From Mytilus edulis (Eukaryota): DNA of 64,000 nt. Positions 7,536 through 64,000 of the stretch are shown here, piece by piece. The number at the start of each line of letters is the position of its first letter. Position 1 is the stretch's first letter. The stretch covers positions 248,001-312,000 of the forward strand of contig NC_092356.1 of the NCBI RefSeq assembly GCF_963676685.1, read 5' to 3'. A program made the translations under genes and the position numbers. The notes under the pieces are model-generated. The model did not search any database and was not told the DNA's origin. It saw only the letters and a list, made by a program, of their open reading frames with translations.

Positions 7536-7596
7536 CTGAAAGAGACAAGTAGCGATGACATATTTTACCAACAGTGGCAATGTACGTACATGCACT

Positions 7597-7760: not shown

Positions 7761-8689
7761 TCTTCAGCCAAACATACGCGAATATTAATTTACATCATTG
7801 CTTTGATGGCTACTATATGTACCATCAGATGCACAATGTCATGTCGTAACTAAGGAGTACGCCGCCATCTTGACTTTCTATAAAAACTTAAATGTTCGAT
7901 AAATGCAACAGAATCTAAAATGAACTAGCACCTACCTCAAAAACTTCATTTTAATTAGATACTATCCGAATTTGAAGCGTACAAGTAACGAAATAATCTT
8001 TCGTCTGAAAGTTTTCAATCGTATGACGTCGTGTCTTGCCATGACGTACATTCGCCAAATCATTCGTGAAATTTCCCTGAATTTTATTTAAATTTTATTT
8101 TTATACATTTTCGAAGCTTTAGTGCATTTATTTTATTTCTTTTTTTGGGGTTATATATGCATTAGAATAGAAACAACTGTCATGCAATTGTTTTATAATC
8201 TCAACTTGCTGAAAATCCCAGTATCCCTGCAAGAATGTGTATCGCGCATGAATAGACTACAAAAGTAGTTTCGGAAACATGGTTTATCGAAGTGTAAACC
8301 AAGAGAAAAATTCTTCTTGACCAATCCAATTCAAGTATTTATAGATATGCAAATGATATAAGAATTATAATACCGTATTACTGCGTCAAGTGGGCACCGT
8401 GTGCTGACCATAATGTATTATCAGATTGATAATGTGTATCTATATCATATGCATTAAGGTAAATTATTTCTTTGTTGAATATAGATTATTTTTTTCTCTA
8501 ATGTGTGCTTAAAAGCAAATGTATGGTTTAACACATACTTAGCCGTACAATACAATAAAGTACCAGAACAACTTTGAAAACATACTTGCGTTCACCTGTT
8601 GGTGACCTTCTGCTGTTGGTTTTTTTTCTATGGTCGGGTTGTTGTCTCTTTGGTACATTCCCCATTTCCATTCTCAATTTTATTACGTA

Positions 8690-10800
8690 AACAACAGGGG
8701 TGCTTCATACAATGTCACGTACATTCGTAATCAACAGGAGTGCTACATACAATGACACTTACGTTTGTAATCAATAGGAGTGCTATAGACAATGTCACTT
8801 ACGTTTGTAATCAACAGGAGTGCTACAGACAATGTCTCTTACGTTCGTAATCAACAGGAGTGCTACAGACAATGTCTCTTACGTTCGTAATCAACAGGAG
8901 TGCTACAGACAGTGTCACTTACGTTCGTAATTAACAGGAGTGTTACATACAATGTCATTTGCGTTCGTAATCAACAGGATTTTTACAGATAATGTCACTT
9001 ACGTTCGTTATAACGTGGTGTGCTACATACAATGTCACTTACGTTCGTAATAACGTGGAGTGCTACATACAATGTCACTTACGTTCGTCATCAACAGGAG
9101 TGTTACAGATAATGTCACTAACGTTCGTAATCGACAGGAGTGCTACATACAATGTCACTTACATTCGTAATTAACAGGAGTGCTACAGACAACTTCACTT
9201 ACGTTCGTAATCAACAGGAGTCCTATAGACAATGTAACTTACGTTCTTAATCAACAGGAGTCCTATAGACAATGTCACTTACGTTCGTAATCAACAGTAG
9301 TACTATAGACCATGTCACTTACGTTCGTAATCAATAGGAGTGCCACGCACATTGTCTCTTACTATCCTAATCAACTGAAGTGCTTCAGAAAATGTCACTT
9401 ACGTTCGTAATCAATAGGAGTCCTATAGACAATGTAACTTACGTTCGTAATCAACAGGAGTCCTATAGACAATGTAACTTACGTTCTTAATCAACAGGAA
9501 TCCTATAGACAATGTAACTTACGTTCGTAATCAACAGGAGTCCTATAGACAATGTAACTTACGTTCTTAATCAACAGGAGTCCTATAGACAATGTCACTT
9601 ACGTTCGTAATCAACAGGAGCGTTCGTAATCAACAGGAGTCTTATAGACAATGTAACGTACGTTCGTAATCAACAGGAGTCCTATAGACAATGTCACTTA
9701 CGTTTGTAATCAACAGGAGTCCTATAGACAATGTCACTTACGTTTGCAATCAACAGGAGTCCTATAGACAATGTAACTTACGTTTGCAATCAACAGGAGT
9801 CCTATAGACAATGTCACTTACGTTCATAATCAATAGGCGTGCTATTGACAATGTCACTTACGTTCATAATCAACAGGCGTGCTACAGACTATGTCGCCAT
9901 TCATAGTGATATTGTTCTCTGACAAATAGTCCAAGAACCAGAGGTTTTCGCAGGAACAGTCCCAGCTGATGCCATACATATCTACTGAGGCAAGGCCAAA
10001 GACATTGGCAAACATGTTGTTTGGGATGGAGTGTTACAGATAATGTCACTTACGTTCGTTATAACGTGGTGTGCTACATACAATGTCACTTACGTTCGTA
10101 ATAACGTGGAGTGCTACATACCATGTCACTTACGTTCGTAATCAACAGGAGTGTTACAGATAATGTCACTAACGTTCGTAATCAACAGGAGTGCTACATA
10201 CAATGTCACTTACATTCGTAATCAACAGGAGTGCTACAGACAATTTCACTTACGTTCGTAATCAACAGGAGTCCTATAGACAATGTAACTTACGTTCTTA
10301 ATCAACAGGAGTCCTATAGACAATGTCACTTACGTTCGTAATCAACAGTAGTACTATAGACCATGTCACTTACGTTCGTAATCAATAGGAGTGCCACGCA
10401 CATTGTCTCTTACTATCCTAATCAACTGAAGTGCTTCAGAAAATGTCACTAACGTTCGTTATCAACAGGAGTCCTATAGACAATGTAACTTACGTTCGTA
10501 ATCAACAGGAGTCCTATAGACAATGTAACTTACGTTCTTAATCAACAGGAGTCCTATAGACAATGTTACTTACGTTCATAATCAACAGGAGTCTCATAGA
10601 CAATGTAACTTACGTTCGTAATCAACAGGAGTGCTATAGACAATGTCACTCACGTTTGTAATCAACAGGAGTCCTATAGACAATGTCAATTACGTTTGTA
10701 ATCAACAGGAGTCCTATAGACAATGTAACTTACGTTCGTAATCAACAGGAGTGCTATAGACAATGTCACTTACGTTCATAATCAACAGGCGTGCTACAGA
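8690..10800 (-). repeat. 40-bp minisatellite (~48 copies) in gene B intron 1; unit = last ~34 nt of exon 1 plus GTAAGT
   Basis: Unit caatgtcacttacgttcgtaatcaacaggagtgctacaga matches 10761-10800 across the exon/intron junction. Confidence 0.95.
9862..10029 (-). pseudogene. Duplicated 3' ~168 bp of gene B exon 1 embedded in the minisatellite
   Basis: Near-identical to 10774-10941 (four substitutions seen); no evident acceptor in front. Confidence 0.85.
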
Positions 10801-11650
10801 CTATGTCGCCATTCATAGTGATATTGTTCTCTGATAAATAGTCCAAGAACCAGAGGTTGTCGCAGGAACAGTCCCAGCTGATGCCATACATATCTACTGA
10901 GGCGAGGCCAAAGACATTGGCAAACATGTTGTTCGGGATGGTTGTAAATGTGTTATAGTTCAGGGAAGCATAATTTAACTTTGATAACGCATAGAACATG
11001 TCGGATGTTACTGTTGATAGGTGAGCGTTTTCAATCAGCACTCGTTCAATATTTGGCATATTAAACAATGCTCCGAACGCCAATGCACCGGACGTCAGCT
11101 CTGAGTTAATAATTGCGAACTCTCCCTTAGGATTCGGTACTGTTGTCATTCGATTTACGTTCAGGTTTTTGAAACTATCAGCCACCATATTAGAAATGGA
11201 TCCGCCTTGAATGTGGAATAGATTGACATCTCCAAAGTAAGAGAATGCTTCAACTGGAATGGATAGAATATCACAATTTAGAATTTCGACTTCTTCAACG
11301 TAACTGAAATCGGCAAACGCGTCTTTGTCCAAAATTAACTGCCCTCCGAAATAACACATGATATATAGGGCTGGCGCATAGTCTGGATCAAAAGTTGCTG
11401 TGTTAATACTACTGAATCCAGAAAATGCCGGTCCATTCGGTGCACTTGCTGAGATTTCGCCATCGACATCTTTCAGCATCAGTCTTTGCGGCTGCGCAGT
11501 TGTAAAGTCAGAAAATACAAGAGGCAAACTCCAACTTCTTGCGTTACAGGTGAATAAAATTGTCGATGCATCATATGTACAACCGGTAGGGTCCCCAGAT
11601 GCTGATGACAAAACATATATAACAAACAGAACACGAAAATGAAGACCCAT
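10774..11650 (-). CDS. LRR gene B exon 1; full CDS join 10774..11650, 7470..7535, 6658..6959 (414 aa)
   Basis: ORF 10766..11650 with signal peptide, LRRs and WDCSCDNLW; donor GAAC|GTAAGT, phase 1. Confidence 0.92.
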
Positions 11651-13884
11651 TGTTTTTTGTTATTAAATTATCTTACTATCTTCTGAGGCAATATTCCGCC
11701 ATATTGAAAGCAATACATTAAAAATTCATTTCTTTAAAGGTTAAGGTATAAACTATACATAAATCCAATTAAAGCCGATTAGATAAATATTGGCACAGTG
11801 GTAAAAGTAAAGTAATTTTGAATAATAAGGTCAAAAGATAATATTTAATAAAATATACACCTCAATACGAGAGATTAAATAAACAATAGAATCGTGTTGT
11901 TTCAGAATTAATTCAAAATTATTGTAGTTTTTCATGTACATTAACATGATTAAGTAGATAAACTCCTTATGTCGAAAATGACCTGTTTAGATATACATCC
12001 TAGTTATGGCTAGGAGTGACCTGTTTAGATATACATCCAAGTTATGGCTAGGAGTGACCTGTTTAGAAATACATCCAAGTTATGGCTAGTAGTTGTTATT
12101 CATTGTTATTAAATCACATTAAAGTTATTTCAAAAGTATGTATGGCATTACAGTACTGAAGTTGAAAAAGTAGGGGATTTGATTAGAAGATCGTAAAATG
12201 CAGACGCTCTGAGTCTCTGTGTTCGCCAATTCGTCACATGCAATTGGCCTTATAAAGTCTTTAGTTTTCTGTGTTGTGTCATGTGTTCTGTTATTGGTCT
12301 GTTTGTCCTTTTTTTGTTAGCCATGGCGTTGTCAGTTTTTTTCCAATTTATTAGTTTGACTGTCCCTCTTTTAAAAGAAACTCTATCTCGTCTTAAAATT
12401 GCTGTCTCTGAGATAATCTAGTCTTGGTTGTTTTTATCTTATTTTTATAGTATGTCTGATGTTGGCAAAACAAGTCGTAGATTTACTCTTTTGAATGGGA
12501 GCTACGTGTAGGTTGTGTTAAGCTTACTTTCATGTGTGGCGTGGATTATGCTCATTGTTGAAGGCTGAACAATGATCTAAAGTTACATTCAATAGTCTGT
12601 TTGTCTTGTAAAGATAATTGTGACATTTGCAATCATACCAAGTGTATAAAATATTTTTAAATTTGATATAACGTTTTTTGTAGTTATCTTCAGCTCAAAC
12701 TTTTTTCTCCAATGATTGATACATGTACTAAGTATTTTTTTGCAGATTGACAGAATTTGCTGTATTTCTAACTTAATAATTATCTATATTGCAAACAGTT
12801 TGTAATGAGGATGAATACAGTATCAGTAATGTCTCTCTATTGAAGAGGTTCCCCTTCATAAATCCTTTCATATTAATCAGAAAGGCTATTTAAAATAACG
12901 AGCGGAAAGAAGTTGCAACGGGATTTTAGCTAATGCCCTACAGTTGGATGTCTTATTGTGGCTAGAAAGGCTTATTTTTTTTTATATAAATAAGGCCGTT
13001 AGTTTTTCTCGTTTGAATTGTTTTACATTGTAACTTCGGGGCCTTTTATAGCTGACTATGTGGTATGGGCTTTGCTCATTGTTGAAGGCCGTACGGTGAC
13101 CGATTAAAGTTGTTAATTCATGTGTCATTATGGTAACTTGTAGAGAGTTATCTTATTGGCAATCATACCACATCTACTTTTTTATATGTATATATTTTTT
13201 TCAATGTAAAACAGTTGTTGACTGTGAAAACTAAAGGATGTATGATAAACGTATAAAACACCAAAAAAAAAATCAGCAAAACAAGATGCAGAAAAGATAT
13301 TGAAAAATTGATTTAAGATCACAGTTTTATTTAAGAAAATGGTTGTGTGGACTGCAAATCTCATGCTATCTAAGGACTCATTTCTAAATTTTATAGACGA
13401 GAACGTGTGTGATATTGGTGTAGAGATATACCGACAATTGTAAATAGTGTACATCGTTATACTTATTCTATTGGTGGTTGGATACTTTTAATTTATAACA
13501 GTCTACTAGTGAAAGGATATTCTTGACTTCATTCTGAAGGTGTGCTCATATTGGCAGAATGGACACAGAATACAGAATGCAGATGCCTTGAACTTGCAAA
13601 GTAGTAAAATCTGTAGACATATCTTTGAGTATTTTCTTTTTGCCCGTAAAACAACATCTTTTTTCAGTTTTTGAATGATAGCGTCATCTGCATTTAAAGT
13701 GCAAATTGCAAAAATCTTCAGCACGACATTTACCTAAAAATGTAAGAAAAATCAGTAAACCTGAGTTATTACCCCTGAAATAAAGCTTTTTCCACTAAAA
13801 GTTAAAACAGGTAAATTGCAAGAAAGATCAACAATACAAAGAGTAACGTTATTATATTACGTAACGATACTCATAATATAAAAA

Positions 13885-14570
13885 AAAGAAAAGATGTGGT
13901 ATGATTGCCAATGAGACAACTGTCCACAAGAGACATTAACAATTATAGGTCACCGTACGGCCTTCAACAATGAGCATACCCAAATCCGCATAGTCAGCTA
14001 TAAAAGGCCCCGATAAGACAATGTAAAACAATTCAAACGAGAAAACTAATGGCCTTATTTATATAAGAAAATGAACGAAAAACAAATATGTAACACATAA
14101 ATAAACGAGAACCACTAAATTACCGGCTCCTGACTTGGGACAGACACATACTACATAAATAATGTGGCGGGGTTAAACATGTTAGCGGGATCCCAACCCT
14201 CCCCCTAACCTGGGACAGTGGTATAACAGTACAACATAAGAACGAACTATAAAAACCAGTTGAAAAAGGCTTAACTCATCAGATGGACACAAATACAAGT
14301 GGACGCGGCCGGGTACTTATACATCCCGACACAAAAAGACACAATGAACAGATCTGAGAGTACTCGCAGTTATCTGACAGCTATATATATATAGCTAGTT
14401 CAAAGCCACTAACAACTAATAAAAAAATCATGCATCTTAGACTTAACTATCAATCCGTACACATCCAACATCCAATGGATTTAGTGTAAAGACGCTATAA
14501 ACAGCCAGACAAAAACATGACCTTGTGCAATGCCAAGTTACAGGTATCGACAGAGTGTAGATCCATGAAT
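13885..14570 (+). mobile_element. Long copy of the dominant dispersed repeat family (class unresolved); fragments at ~650-740, 2410-2570, 3030-3545, 12980-13185, 34555-34805, 43350-43915, 44215-44310, 46590-46850
   Basis: Recurrent aagatgtggtatgattgccaatgagacaact...gtcagctataaaaggcccc in both orientations. Confidence 0.75.
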
Positions 14571-14882: not shown

Positions 14883-15007
14883 TGTATATAACATACTAGT
14901 AATATTTAGTTAGCTTTTAATTTACTGATAACAAAATCAATATTTATACCAATAAAACAATATTCAATGATCTTATTAAAGTATTGAATGGGTAACCTTT
15001 TAGCCAA

Positions 15008-16080
15008 GGTAGATACAAGTATCTTGTCTTAGGGAGGGATAAATCATACTTTGTAAAGAATCACTCTGATTCAAACAAAAAATTCTCTGAAACCGATATT
15101 ATCAAGATGCTTGATTTCTTGATTGACAACATATTTGTAACGTTCGGAGGACGTGTTTTTCAACAGACTGTCGGCATCCCAATGAGAACAAACTGTGCCC
15201 CTCTACTTGCCGACTTATTTCTTTATTGTTATGAGGCTGACTTCATGCAGGAACTTCTTAGGAAGAAAGATAAGAAGTTAGCAATATCCTTTAACTCTAC
15301 TTTCCGCTATATAGATGACGTTCTTTCACTAAACAATTCAACATTCGGTGACTATGTGGAACGCATCTATCCCATCGAATTGGAGATAAAGGATACTACA
15401 GATACAGTTAAGTCGGCTTCATATCTTGACTTACATCTAGAAATTGACAATGAGGGTCGGTTGAAAACAAAACTTTACGACAAAAGAGATGATTTCAGCT
15501 TTCCAATTGTGAACTTTCCATTTCTAAGTAGCAACATTCCAGCAGCACCTGCATACGGGGTATATATCTCCCAATTGATACGATATTCCCGTGCTTGCAT
15601 TTCCTATCATGATTTTCTTGATAGAGGGTTACTGCTCACAAGGAAGCTATTAAACCAAGAGTTCCAAATGGTGAAGTTGAAATCATCCCTTCGTAAATTT
15701 TACGGACGCCATCACGAGTTGGTTGACCGTTATGGAATAACCGTTTCACAAATGATATCGGATATGTTCTTTACGTCGTAACTACAATCCCCTTCCCTTT
15801 CATGAATGTGACCTACCGATTTAGACTATTTACCGGTTATGTAATCACATAAGCAACACGACGGGGCCACATGTGGAGCAGGATCTGCTTACCCTTCCGG
15901 AGCACCTGAGATCACCCCTAGTTTTTGGTGGGGTTCGTGTTGTTTATTCTTTAGTTTTCTATGTTGTGTCATGTGTACTATTGTTTTTCTGTTTGTCTTT
16001 TTCATTTTTAGCCATGGCGTTGTAAGTTTGTTTTAGATTTATGAGTTTGACTGTCCCTTTGGTATCTTTCGTCCCTCTTT
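15008..16080 (+). mobile_element. 5'-truncated Penelope-like retroelement: RT core/thumb (ORF 15107..15781) plus 3' tail
   Basis: QQTVGIPM(R)TNCAPLLADLFL, FRYIDDV, YLDL, LYDKRDDF, AYGVYISQLIRY motifs. Confidence 0.85.
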
Positions 16081-29617: not shown

Positions 29618-32600
29618 CAGTGATGTGGAAGGATTTTTTCAGTATGGGCCCTGGGCCCCCAAAAACAATATTTAATGGGCCATTTTGAGATTTAATGGGC
29701 CTTGTTGTCAAATGAATGGGCCATTGATTTATAACAACAACAAAAAACCAAAAATGTATGTTTCAGCAAAAAGGTACTAACCTTGTGATTCTAATTTGCA
29801 TTGTCTCTTTGCTTTTGTAAATTCAATGATAATTTAAGTCTTAGTTCATGCTGATATATTTATGTTTTTTGTGAAAAAGACTAAATAAAGGCAACAGTAG
29901 TATACCGCTGTTCAAAACTCATAAATCCATGGACAAATAACAAAATCGGGGTAACAAACTAAAACCGAGGGAAAAGCATTAAATATAAGAGAACAACGAC
30001 ATAACACTAAAATGTAACACACATAGACAAAATCCCACGAGAATAACAAATATAACATATATATATAACATCAAAACCAAATACATGAAATTGGATAGAC
30101 AAGTACCGTGACACGTCTTATCGCAATGTGAATTTACACTCAAAAATAAGAGAAAACAAACGACACAACGTTATAATGTAATACACACAGAAACGAACTA
30201 TAATATAATAATATATAATATATATACTAACATTGTATTTGTTCATCATATGATCATATGTCTCTTTGCTTTTGTAAATTCAATAATTTAGGTCTAGACT
30301 AACTTTTATTATTTAGAGAAGACATCATAACATGATGAAACTTAATTAAATAAACATCAATTATCAAACAATATAGTACAATACAACAATGTGCAAGTAA
30401 CAACATCATAGAAATAGTATCACAATAAAATTAAACAGATAAACACCATATCTGTATTAAATACTGGATAAAACTGAGACTAGAGCTTTCAACATTGTTT
30501 ATGTTAATAATAGCAGCCTATAATTAGCTGATCTAGACATATAAGTTTAGGTTAATTGACTAGAATATTAAGATCTTGATTTCAAGAGTCTTCTTTTTTT
30601 CTTGTGCCACCTTTCAAGTGAGGATTTAAAGTTATGGTGTGCCAAACCCTTGCCATGCATTTTTATTCTTATAAGTTTGTCACACTGTTCGTGATTGAGA
30701 CAGTTCCTTTTTGGGGTCAGTATTTGATTTTGAATAGAAAATGTCCTTTCACAGTCAGCAGTGTGTAAAGGAATAATAAGGGATATCTGTGCCAGCTTAA
30801 TGCTGTTGGGTAGATCTTCTGTGTGATGTACAGTCAGAAGTTGCCACAGATGCTTCATTCTATCTACTGGATATTTGAGTGATTTTACAATTAGCTTTGC
30901 CTCCCTCCATTCTTTCAATACAATATCTATATCAAATATGGGGGCAGAGACTTTTCCTTTATGGACCAACTAATAATAGATTATAGATGTAGTAGTTAGC
31001 AACTAGTCTCATATTAATTGTTTTCATTTGATTTGGCAATCATATAAAAAAAAACAAATGTTAAATGGTCAATGATGGCCATCATACAGAAATATTATTT
31101 GGTCAAAACAACAATTACTTTGTCAAGTACATACCTTTGCAACAGCAACATCAAGGTCTTTCTTTTGTAAGGTTAAGCATAACTTCGACACTATCGGTAG
31201 TACATCCATCAGCATATAAGTGATATATATAAAACTAGTTGTTGCCATTTTTTTTAATAAGCCATTTGCCTTTGGGTCCTTTGATGCTTGCCTTTTATGG
31301 AAGTATGAAATGAGAGCATCAAGACTACGATAAACCGCCTGCACAGCCTCAAAACAGGATAACCATCTGACAGCATGTATCTCTTTGCATTTTAATATTG
31401 GTAAATTTAGTACTGACTGTACTTCATGTAATTCACCTTCTCTTGTTGGGAAAGCTTTGAAGTAATAAAATACAGAAGTCCACCATTTCTGATAATGTTT
31501 CATTAATTGAACACCTTCTGCTGCTTGGCTTGTACAAAGGGCTAATCTATGAGCCATACAATGAATGTGTATCATATGTGGGTTTAATTCCATCAACCAC
31601 CCTTTAACACCCTTATCAGACCCTGACATTACAGTTGCTCCATCAGAGCCAAAACCTATTAGTTTGTCATTAGTAATGTTGTGTTTTGCCATTTCCTCTA
31701 TAATAACCGAGGTCAAACCTTCACCAGTTCCATCGGAGTAAGATTTATCCCGTAGGATTACAGTTTCAGGAATTGATGTTTCTGGGTCAATAATCCTTGC
31801 ATTAATGGTAATCTTTTTATTGTTAGAAGTGTCAGTGCTTTCATCTGCTAGAATGGTAACATAAGGCGATTTTGAAATTTTTTCATCAATCTCTGATTCA
31901 ATTTCCAAATCAATGGCAGCAAGGATTTCTGTAGCCGAATAATAACTTTCGTAATTAATTCTGTCATTGAATTTTAAGTTTTCAAGTTTAGTGACTCCTA
32001 CTTTTTTCAAAAAATTAATCATTGATTCATATTTATTAAGAGGCAAATCTTCTGAAGCTAACCAATAAACTGCCATCATTGCAAGAATTATGGCTTAATC
32101 CTCAGCACTGTCGAGTTTGTTACATGATTTAGTAAATTCTTGCTGATGTATTGGTGTTGATATTGCTTGTTTGTGGTCAGGTGTCTCTTGATGTCTAGAC
32201 ATAGTACTTGTTTTGAATGTTGTGCAGACTAATGCAAGGTAATTTTTCTTCCCAGCCTTTTGACAAGATTTGCAATACATTTTCGTGCCATCATACAAAA
32301 GCCAGGGCCATAACTTTTCCCAAACAGGGTGATATTTGCGGGAATCTTTATTTACAGCAGTAGTACTAGTACCTTCACCGGGATCGTCGTGTTTGTTGTC
32401 ATGTTCAACTTCATTTGGGTCTTCGTCGACCGCCATACTTTCCTCAGTAATGTCCGTATCTGTGTTGGGCGTTTGAGACAACTCCTCTGCATTTTCTGAA
32501 TTATTGTTTTTATCCCGACCAACAAAAGAAAGTAATGTTTTTTGTCCAGGCAAAACAACAATTCGCTGTTTCTTTGGAGGCATGTTTACAAATTTTAAAA

Positions 32601-33084
32601 ATAAACCAAAGACCAAAAAGTTGACAAGGACAGTTAAGCGCCTTTTTATAGAGACAATTTCGATATTTTAATAAAAAGCCCCCGGGTCAATTGAAATTAT
32701 AGGGAGTTTGATTTAAATTTTTTAATTTGTAAAAATTTCTACTCTTTACAAGCCAACTTTTACAGATTTAAAGTTGTTTGCTTTGAAATATTTAAAATAT
32801 TCTTGATTATGTTTTATTTTGTAAATCAGATATACCACATGTTGTTATCGTGGACATAAATCAAAACGCCCGAGACGACTCGAAAATGTTATGGTGCTCC
32901 TATCTTTGGAGCAAAACACAACACCGTTTTGGACACAAATCATGGCGACACGAAACTTTCAAACACAATCGGAAATTCAACTTGCGATGTCTAAACGAAG
33001 CAAAAATATTGTGCGCCACTCCGGCGCTGGCATACGTGACTCTATGCGCAATGGGCGCATGGCGCTCGACTTTCCCGATCACTG
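29618..33084 (-). mobile_element. hAT-superfamily DNA transposon, ~3.47 kb
   Basis: Imperfect TIRs CAGTGATGTGGAAGG / CAGTGATCGGGAAAG; ttaatg on both flanks; internal transposase. Confidence 0.85.
30568..32616 (-). pseudogene. Defective ZNF862-like hAT transposase
   Basis: TTF-type Zn finger (WPWL..MYCKSC..H..H), LADESTD, GFGSDGA, HCMAHRLAL, VRWLS, and dimerisation motif PLHTADCERTFS; in-frame TAA at 32095 between two same-frame ORFs. Confidence 0.88.
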
Positions 33085-37219: not shown

Positions 37220-37952
37220 ACTTGATTACTTACACCTAGGCTAGAAATGACAGCTGTTTCATCAAAAGTGATGTTATTTGTAACAGTGTAATTATAATAC
37301 AGAGTGATAACTTACATTGGTCAGCAGCCGGAGTGAAACAAACAGCTGCTCTATCAAAATGATGCTATTGGCTACAGTATAATCATAATATTCAGTGATA
37401 TATATAACTTACTTGTTCAGTAGCCGGAATGCAACACACAGCTGCTCCATCAAAAGTGATGTTACTGCTACAGTGTAATCATAATACAAAGTGATAACTT
37501 GCATTGTTGAGCAGCTGAAATGGAACAGACAGCTGCTCTGTCAAAAGTGATGTTATTGGCTACAGTATAATCATAATACCAAGTAATAACTTACATTGTT
37601 CAGCAGCTAGAGTGGAACAGACAGCTGCTCTGTCAAAAGTGATGTTATTGGCTACAGTATAATCATAATACCAAGTGATAACTTGCATTGTTCAGCAGCT
37701 GGAGTGGAACAGACAGCTGCTCTGTCAAAAGTGATGTTATTGGCTACAGTATAATCATAATACCAAGTGATAACTTACTTGTTCAGCAGCCGGAGAGGAA
37801 CACACAGCTGCTCTGTCAAAAGTGATGTTATTGGCTACAATATAATCATAATACCAAGTGATAACTTACATTGTTCAGCAGCTGGAGTTGAACAAACAGC
37901 TGCTCCGTCAAAAGTGATGTTATTGGCTACAGTGTAATCATAATACCAAGTG
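37220..37952 (-). repeat. ~92-bp tandem repeat (7 intronic copies plus the real junction) in gene E intron 1; unit = exon 1 end plus donor
   Basis: acttac/acttgc recurs at 37228, 37310, 37407, 37497, 37589, 37681, 37773, 37864. Confidence 0.93.
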
Positions 37953-63348: not shown

Positions 63349-64000
63349 ACAGAAGTTTTGGGAAAAGATCAGTATGTATAATGGTAAAGGGACACTTATC
63401 ACTTTGGCACACAGAAGTTTTGGGAAAAGATCAGTATGTATAACTGTAACGGACACTTACAACTTTGGCACACAGAAGTTTTGGGAAAAGAACAGTATGT
63501 ATAACGGTAAACGAACACTTACCACTTTGGCACACAGAAGTTTTGGGAAAAGATCAGTATGTATAACGGTAAACGAACACTTACCACTTTGGCACACAGA
63601 AGTTTTGGGAAAAGATCAGTATGTATAATGGTAAACGGACACTTACCACTTTGGCACACAGAAGTTTTGGGAAAAGATCAGTATGTATAACGGTAAACGA
63701 ACACTTACCACTTTGGCACACAGAAGTTTTGGGAAAAGATCAGTATGTATAACGGTAAACGAACACTTACCACTTTGGCACACAGAAGTTTTGGGAAAAG
63801 ATCAGTATGTATAATGGTAAACGGACACTTACCACTTTGGCACACAGAAGTTTTGGGAAAAGATCGGTATGTATAACGGTAAACGGATACTTACCACTTA
63901 AGCACACAGAAATGTTGGGAAAAGATCAGTATGTATAACGGTAAACTGACACTTACCACTTTGGGACACAGAAGTTTTGGGAAAAGATCAGTTTGTATAA
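63349..64000 (-). repeat. 62-bp tandem repeat (~10 copies, truncated by window edge) with GTG|GTAAGT in most units
   Basis: Unit gaagttttgggaaaagatcagtatgtataacggtaaacgaacacttaccactttggcacaca. Confidence 0.92.

Follow-up and report, generated by a model that had tools for sequence, protein, structure and literature searches.

A donor-spanning minisatellite in intron 1 of an LRR membrane protein gene of Mytilus edulis

Gene B and the array in its first intron

The stretch analysed here (the window) comprises 64,000 nt of Mytilus edulis DNA. A tandem cluster of 10 LRR genes, all on one strand, extends over window positions 960-51123 and G000:C13:197360-299003, and each of these genes has a phase-1 intron directly after the C-terminal cap. 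A search of G000 at E 1e-10 gave no matches to the cluster genes outside the cluster. Between the LRR genes are open frames at 14996-15781 (+) and 30568-32667 (-), which we take, by eye, to resemble part of a reverse transcriptase and a transposase of the cut-and-paste type. Upstream of the gene considered below, at 13004-14045, inverted repeat arms of 121 nt stand 800 nt apart, possibly a non-autonomous transposon.

One of the cluster genes, gene B, lies on the minus strand and has three exons. Coding exon 1 (11650-10774, 877 nt) encodes a hydrophobic N-terminus, LRRs and the C-terminal cap and ends in phase 1. After an intron of 3238 nt comes exon 2 (7535-7470, 66 nt), whose acceptor is ttttcag at 7536, and the coding part of exon 3 (6959-6658) encodes a transmembrane stretch and a cytoplasmic tail. 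The product is an LRR membrane protein of 414 aa, identical to M. edulis P0002. Using Pfam, LRR_8 was found in exon 1 above the cut-off (E 4.8e-07). The sole transmembrane stretch occupies about residues 321-352, with windows starting at 321-334 exceeding hydropathy 1.8, and the hydrophobic N-terminus, judged by eye, is likely a signal peptide. Gene B thus fits LRR single-pass membrane proteins, in which the LRRs are followed by one transmembrane stretch. Five database models of 414 aa from four Mytilus species (M. edulis, M. galloprovincialis, M. trossulus (2) and M. californianus) all have the junction of gene B, and the exon 1/intron 1 boundary is backed by orthologous proteins and one RNA contig.

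Intron 1 carries a minisatellite, reported by TRF at 8686-10807 with a period of 40 and a score of 1526. The authentic donor of gene B (AAC/GTAAGT, intron bases at 10768-10773) is its first donor position. The initial annotation had described about 48 tandem copies of the exon end plus GTAAGT, and we counted 48 donor positions, 40 nt apart, including the authentic one. GT is present at 47/48, GTAAGT at 36/48 and the 9-mer AAC/GTAAGT at 34/48; at the spare positions GT is kept in 46/47 and the full 9-mer in 33/47. The unit consists of 34 exon nt and 6 intron nt, and the seed unit begins at 10807, 34 nt within exon 1. The unit had also been called almost exactly the exon end, which holds for the consensus (30/34 bases identical) but not for single units, since the 46 full units match the exon end at 74-91% (mean 82%). 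A DNA search of G000 gave at least 21 matches, every one at the gene B locus.

The array is not a single run, because a 168-nt copy of the exon 1 end, missed in the initial annotation, interrupts it. This duplicate (10029-9862) is identical to the exon end at 164/168 bases and has its own GTAAGT donor at 9861. Block 1 (10034-10773) holds 19 donor positions in 40-nt units. Block 2 (8686-9861) holds 29; it is collinear with block 1 but extends beyond it in a distal tail, and it includes a 19-nt partial unit at about 9621-9603. Since the two blocks align unit by unit, 912 nt were duplicated after the array arose. At the far end, the last unit is truncated by an interspersed repeat (8590-8686, minus strand), which is common (70 matches across 59 of 141 pieces).

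In DNA run X11 a loose end of 28 letters carries the junction of the 912-nt duplication, and we therefore rejected an assembly artefact as its source; X11 may be related to the assembly source, so that this junction is not independent proof. In DNA run X1 one contig over exon 1 lacked the duplication junction. Neither absence nor array length can be read from contigs, so this gives a weak hint that the duplication is polymorphic between individuals.

We compared the conservation of the spare donors with that of the rest of the unit. Over 45 units, the number of distinct variant letters per site was 1.17 in the donor hexamer vs 1.29 elsewhere, and a pooled count over arrays, with rough unit parsing and two arrays left out, gave no protection of GT. 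Selection on the spare donors was not seen in these two counts, the hexamer varying like the remainder of the unit. Ranked by frequency, no 6-nt window of the unit is better kept than the donor hexamer (0.95 vs 0.90, rank 1/40, with near ties), which we read as no signal because the units of an array are not independent.

Donor-spanning arrays in paralogues and unrelated genes

Donor-spanning arrays are present in 2/10 cluster paralogues (B, 40 nt; E, 92 nt), and 8/10 are without one. The minisatellite of paralogue E (37262-37952, minus strand, 7.5 copies) covers an exon end at 37870, and the intron is homologous to that of gene B. The array of E is independent of that of gene B, and the two unit lengths are unrelated. 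In a mussel orthologue of 82% identity, the one outgroup locus from a metagenome scan, the array is absent from the 144 available intron nt.

A TRF survey covered 1.464 Mb of G000, made up of 600 kb of interior sequence, 600 kb near contig starts and 264 kb around the window, and gave 244 arrays with a period of at least 20 and at least 3 copies. Nine of these were accepted as donor-spanning, in unrelated genes including CARD, FMO and SMG1: the arrays of B and E, one each in the CARD gene, L020, the FMO gene and L152, and three in the SMG1 gene. A script had flagged 20 donor rows, from which 8 arrays were kept and the others dropped by eye for implausible translations; the CARD array was added by eye. 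Pfam supports the exons at 6/9.

The array of the CARD gene (L032:4251-9788, G000:C13:172251-177788) repeats a 60-nt unit about 92 times at the end of the first coding exon. Since the unit keeps the reading frame and its first copies lack stops, spare donors there could add residues, not a stop. The gene for SMG1, the NMD kinase, has arrays with units of 138, 119 and 89 nt at L136:5855-6543, L137:1303-2609 and L137:6756-7708, over about 12 kb, with Pfam matches for 2/3 exons. The FMO array (L040:4267-4821) is Pfam-supported, and a further donor-spanning array lies at L152:5053-6065. At the edge of the window, 63349-64000 (minus strand) belongs to a 62-nt array, of which it is the distal part; the array spans the donor of a probable exon that lies outside the window (L020:3476-3372) and has no Pfam match. 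In the L020 gene this apparent donor-spanning array (L020:1442-3410) seems to be accompanied by an acceptor-side array of 64 nt (L020:4128-4993) at the neighbouring exon. Further acceptor-side candidates were seen at L098:7535-8133, L021:6286-6731 and L065:4125-4438. With candidates at L020, L021, L098 and L065, none of which has a Pfam match above the cut-off, a donor-only polarity in which spare donors are tolerated and spare acceptors are not is not supported. A genome-wide enrichment of the donor motif in minisatellites was rejected, GTAAGT occurring in 1/74 interior arrays vs 3.4 in shuffles.

In the local 264 kb, about 20% of bases fall in minisatellites, vs 11% in the interior samples. 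About 1% of bases belong to unit seeds, and chance alone should therefore catch about 1% of donors. By rough extrapolation, mussel donor-spanning arrays likely number hundreds to thousands genome-wide.

All nine arrays have exon-rich units. Intron sequence makes up 0.03-0.37 of the unit, or 4-26 nt, at unit lengths of 40-138 nt, and a search for intron-rich units gave no convincing case. If breakpoints were uniform, an intron share of at most 0.37 in 8/8 arrays (B left out) would be expected, by hand calculation, about 4 times in 10,000, a figure for which the threshold was set post hoc, three cases come from one gene and the exons were called by eye. The GC content of arrays is 36.6% vs 32.5% in other DNA, and this higher GC could favour exon-rich seeds.

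Splicing across the array and the products of spare donors

Reading past the authentic donor continues CGT AAG TGA, that is, ...DYE R K stop, and the immediate in-frame stop noted in the initial annotation is thus confirmed. With any downstream donor and the correspondingly extended exon 1, the stop falls no less than 98 nt upstream of the exon 2/3 junction and ahead of the sole transmembrane stretch. Since it precedes both the last junction and the transmembrane stretch, a spare donor would yield either a target of NMD or a soluble ectodomain. M. coruscus P0030, considered here as a protein sequence, likewise ends close after DYE (DYESK). Six window paralogues hit a stop 5-24 codons into the homologous intron, and a nearby stop is thus not peculiar to the array.

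The RNA sample consisted of low-depth contigs from five runs, compared with exon 1; such contigs drop rare isoforms and give no isoform shares. The boundary was crossed in 1/5 runs, and the contigs of X16-X19 fell short of it. In the polyA run X15, a contig of depth 2.9 joins the 10774 donor to exon 2, past the entire array as it stands in the window. It equals the true exon end at 130/130 bases, 2 of which differ in the duplicate, and beyond exon 1, 18/19 loose letters equal exon 2 bases 5-23; the contig reaches only 23 nt onto exon 2, under the 31-nt bridge threshold. The earlier proposal that downstream donors lead to an ectodomain-only or NMD product therefore stands as conditional logic but not as to actual use, the sole RNA contig using 10774. 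RNA structure masking the spare donors was rejected as well, as in the one 240-nt stretch folded z was -1.12 and 22/200 shuffles folded equally well.

Comparison with known boundary repeats and explanations of the array

Minisatellites whose first monomer lies over an exon-intron boundary are described for F7, IFI6, CBS, LMNB2 and PDGF in the accessible text of PMC1557585. Like these and like the boundary copies called 'mirages' in amphioxus, the array of gene B has a first monomer that spans the real boundary and a donor consensus that is repeated in the intron. The 37-bp VNTR in intron 7 of human F7 also repeats identical donors in the intron, but comprises 5-9 units, each made up of 4 exon and 33 intron nt, compared with 48 positions and 34 exon plus 6 intron nt in gene B (PMC1557585, accessible text). 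The exon/intron pattern of the unit is thus opposite, and gene B, unlike F7, has a nested exon-end duplication. Nearest to the gene B array in size are the 31-bp VNTR of CBS intron 13, the repeat of IFI6 (6-16) intron 2, and the 100-bp LMNB2 and 81-bp PDGF repeats, in which the donor is given as repeated 10-25 times (PMC1557585, PMC5188458, accessible parts).

The amphioxus mirages, in Adh3, BflGb6 and BflGb9, are minisatellite-like boundary copies on donor and acceptor sides; the available portion of PMC3087553 reports RT-PCR that suggests normal splicing and proposes a route to new exons and introns. Like the gene B array they are tandem boundary copies in a marine invertebrate, although amphioxus belongs to a different phylum and, going by that portion, length and somatic instability are demonstrated for the amphioxus mirages only. 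In young human paralogues, exon-intron boundaries bear internal tandem repeats that differ among tandem paralogues, as here, and the part of PMC2812944 at hand describes transcripts that support altered gene structure, whereas gene B is without such support. An abalone repeat is, from the accessible part of PMC6905558, an ordinary intronic repeat. Literature searches of papers open without subscription found none on mussel boundary minisatellites. The gene B array is a large case of a described class of repeat, for which human and lancelet genes provide the known examples.

We consider the array to be a near-neutral minisatellite that arose by slippage and unequal exchange and that splicing steps over by way of the first donor, with a rough probability of 0.78. 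The sole RNA fragment uses the first signal, from which the array is likely an ordinary drifting repeat. The initial 40-nt duplication was most likely primed by the microhomology GACAT, which is seen at exon -34 and intron +7. The array would then have grown as units and blocks were duplicated, in a region that is rich in repeats and close to a contig end. The most upstream donor would be preferred, as in human F7, for which mutagenesis reported in the accessible text of PMC1557585 showed spare donors to be functional and yet to be outcompeted by the one farthest upstream. Transcripts leaking to spare donors would contain the stop and likely be cleared by NMD, which would make the array tolerable, not useful; going by F7 and general NMD rules, tolerance would follow from the dominance of the first donor and the decay of leaked products. 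Against this near-neutral reading stand the RNA depth of 2.9, the use of spare donors in IFI6 and CBS, the first rank of the donor hexamer, P0029 (see below) and the exon-rich units, which plain random slippage does not predict.

Alternatively, as the initial annotation had proposed and much as in CBS, the array may act as a length-dependent rheostat, in which spare donors used at a low rate give NMD targets or a soluble 294-aa ectodomain and longer alleles lower the amount of membrane receptor. The 33 spare donors with the real 9-mer and the stop ahead of the transmembrane stretch would suit this, and the accessible parts of PMC5188458 and PMC1557585 report that CBS repeat number tracks enzyme activity and that CBS and IFI6 also use the two nearest spare donors. 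None is seen used in gene B, on very thin RNA data; the sole junction seen is that of the first donor, the variant count shows no extra conservation of spare donors, F7, LMNB2 and PDGF use the real donor alone as far as the accessible text of PMC1557585 goes, and most cluster paralogues do without an array. We therefore regard the rheostat as unlikely. Should array length in fact tune soluble vs membrane receptor within a tandem LRR cluster, a surface protein would be under a simple heritable control. The gene B array alone matters little; the mussel arrays as a set are natural tests of donor choice among dozens of identical donors, for which few genes have been tested.

It is a long shot that mussel exon-end minisatellites arise through duplication anchored at the 5' splice site and not through random slippage, a reading prompted by the end of the repeat at 4-26 nt into the intron in all nine arrays, regardless of unit length. 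Germline tandem duplication would then be linked to the assembly of spliceosomes on nascent RNA, and gene B, with its nested copy of the exon end, would be a snapshot of a new exon forming.

Quite improbable is the birth of an exon at gene B itself, in which the duplicate exon end would be spliced as a cassette and repeat the LRR C-terminal cap in frame. A 123-nt in-frame exon (9984-9862) is possible, running from an AG acceptor at 9984 with a pyrimidine-rich tract to the donor at 9861, but the array offers 74 in-frame AG-to-donor options, so that one such candidate is no surprise. The same AG is unused within exon 1, and the X15 RNA contig skips the duplicate. P0029, an M. edulis model of 471 aa, has 57 extra residues that equal the duplicate, including its D-to-E change, and the duplication junction is present in X11. 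The junctions in the window able to yield P0029 are, however, all non-canonical, GT-AC at best, and P0029 is therefore probably a modelling error. False junctions between repeats are a known type of annotation error (PMC10632439, accessible part), and boundary arrays mislead gene models, as P0029 may show.

U1 snRNP is abundant, and the transcripts of one gene cannot titrate it. The initially suggested U1 snRNP sink, with 47 sites on the nascent RNA of one gene, is thus implausible, and a U1 guard against intronic polyadenylation is very improbable: the U1 sites are dense and an AATAAA at 8684 comes right after the last unit, but array-less paralogues have the same gene plan, the AATAAA belongs to the interspersed repeat, and four more are found in the gene B intron.
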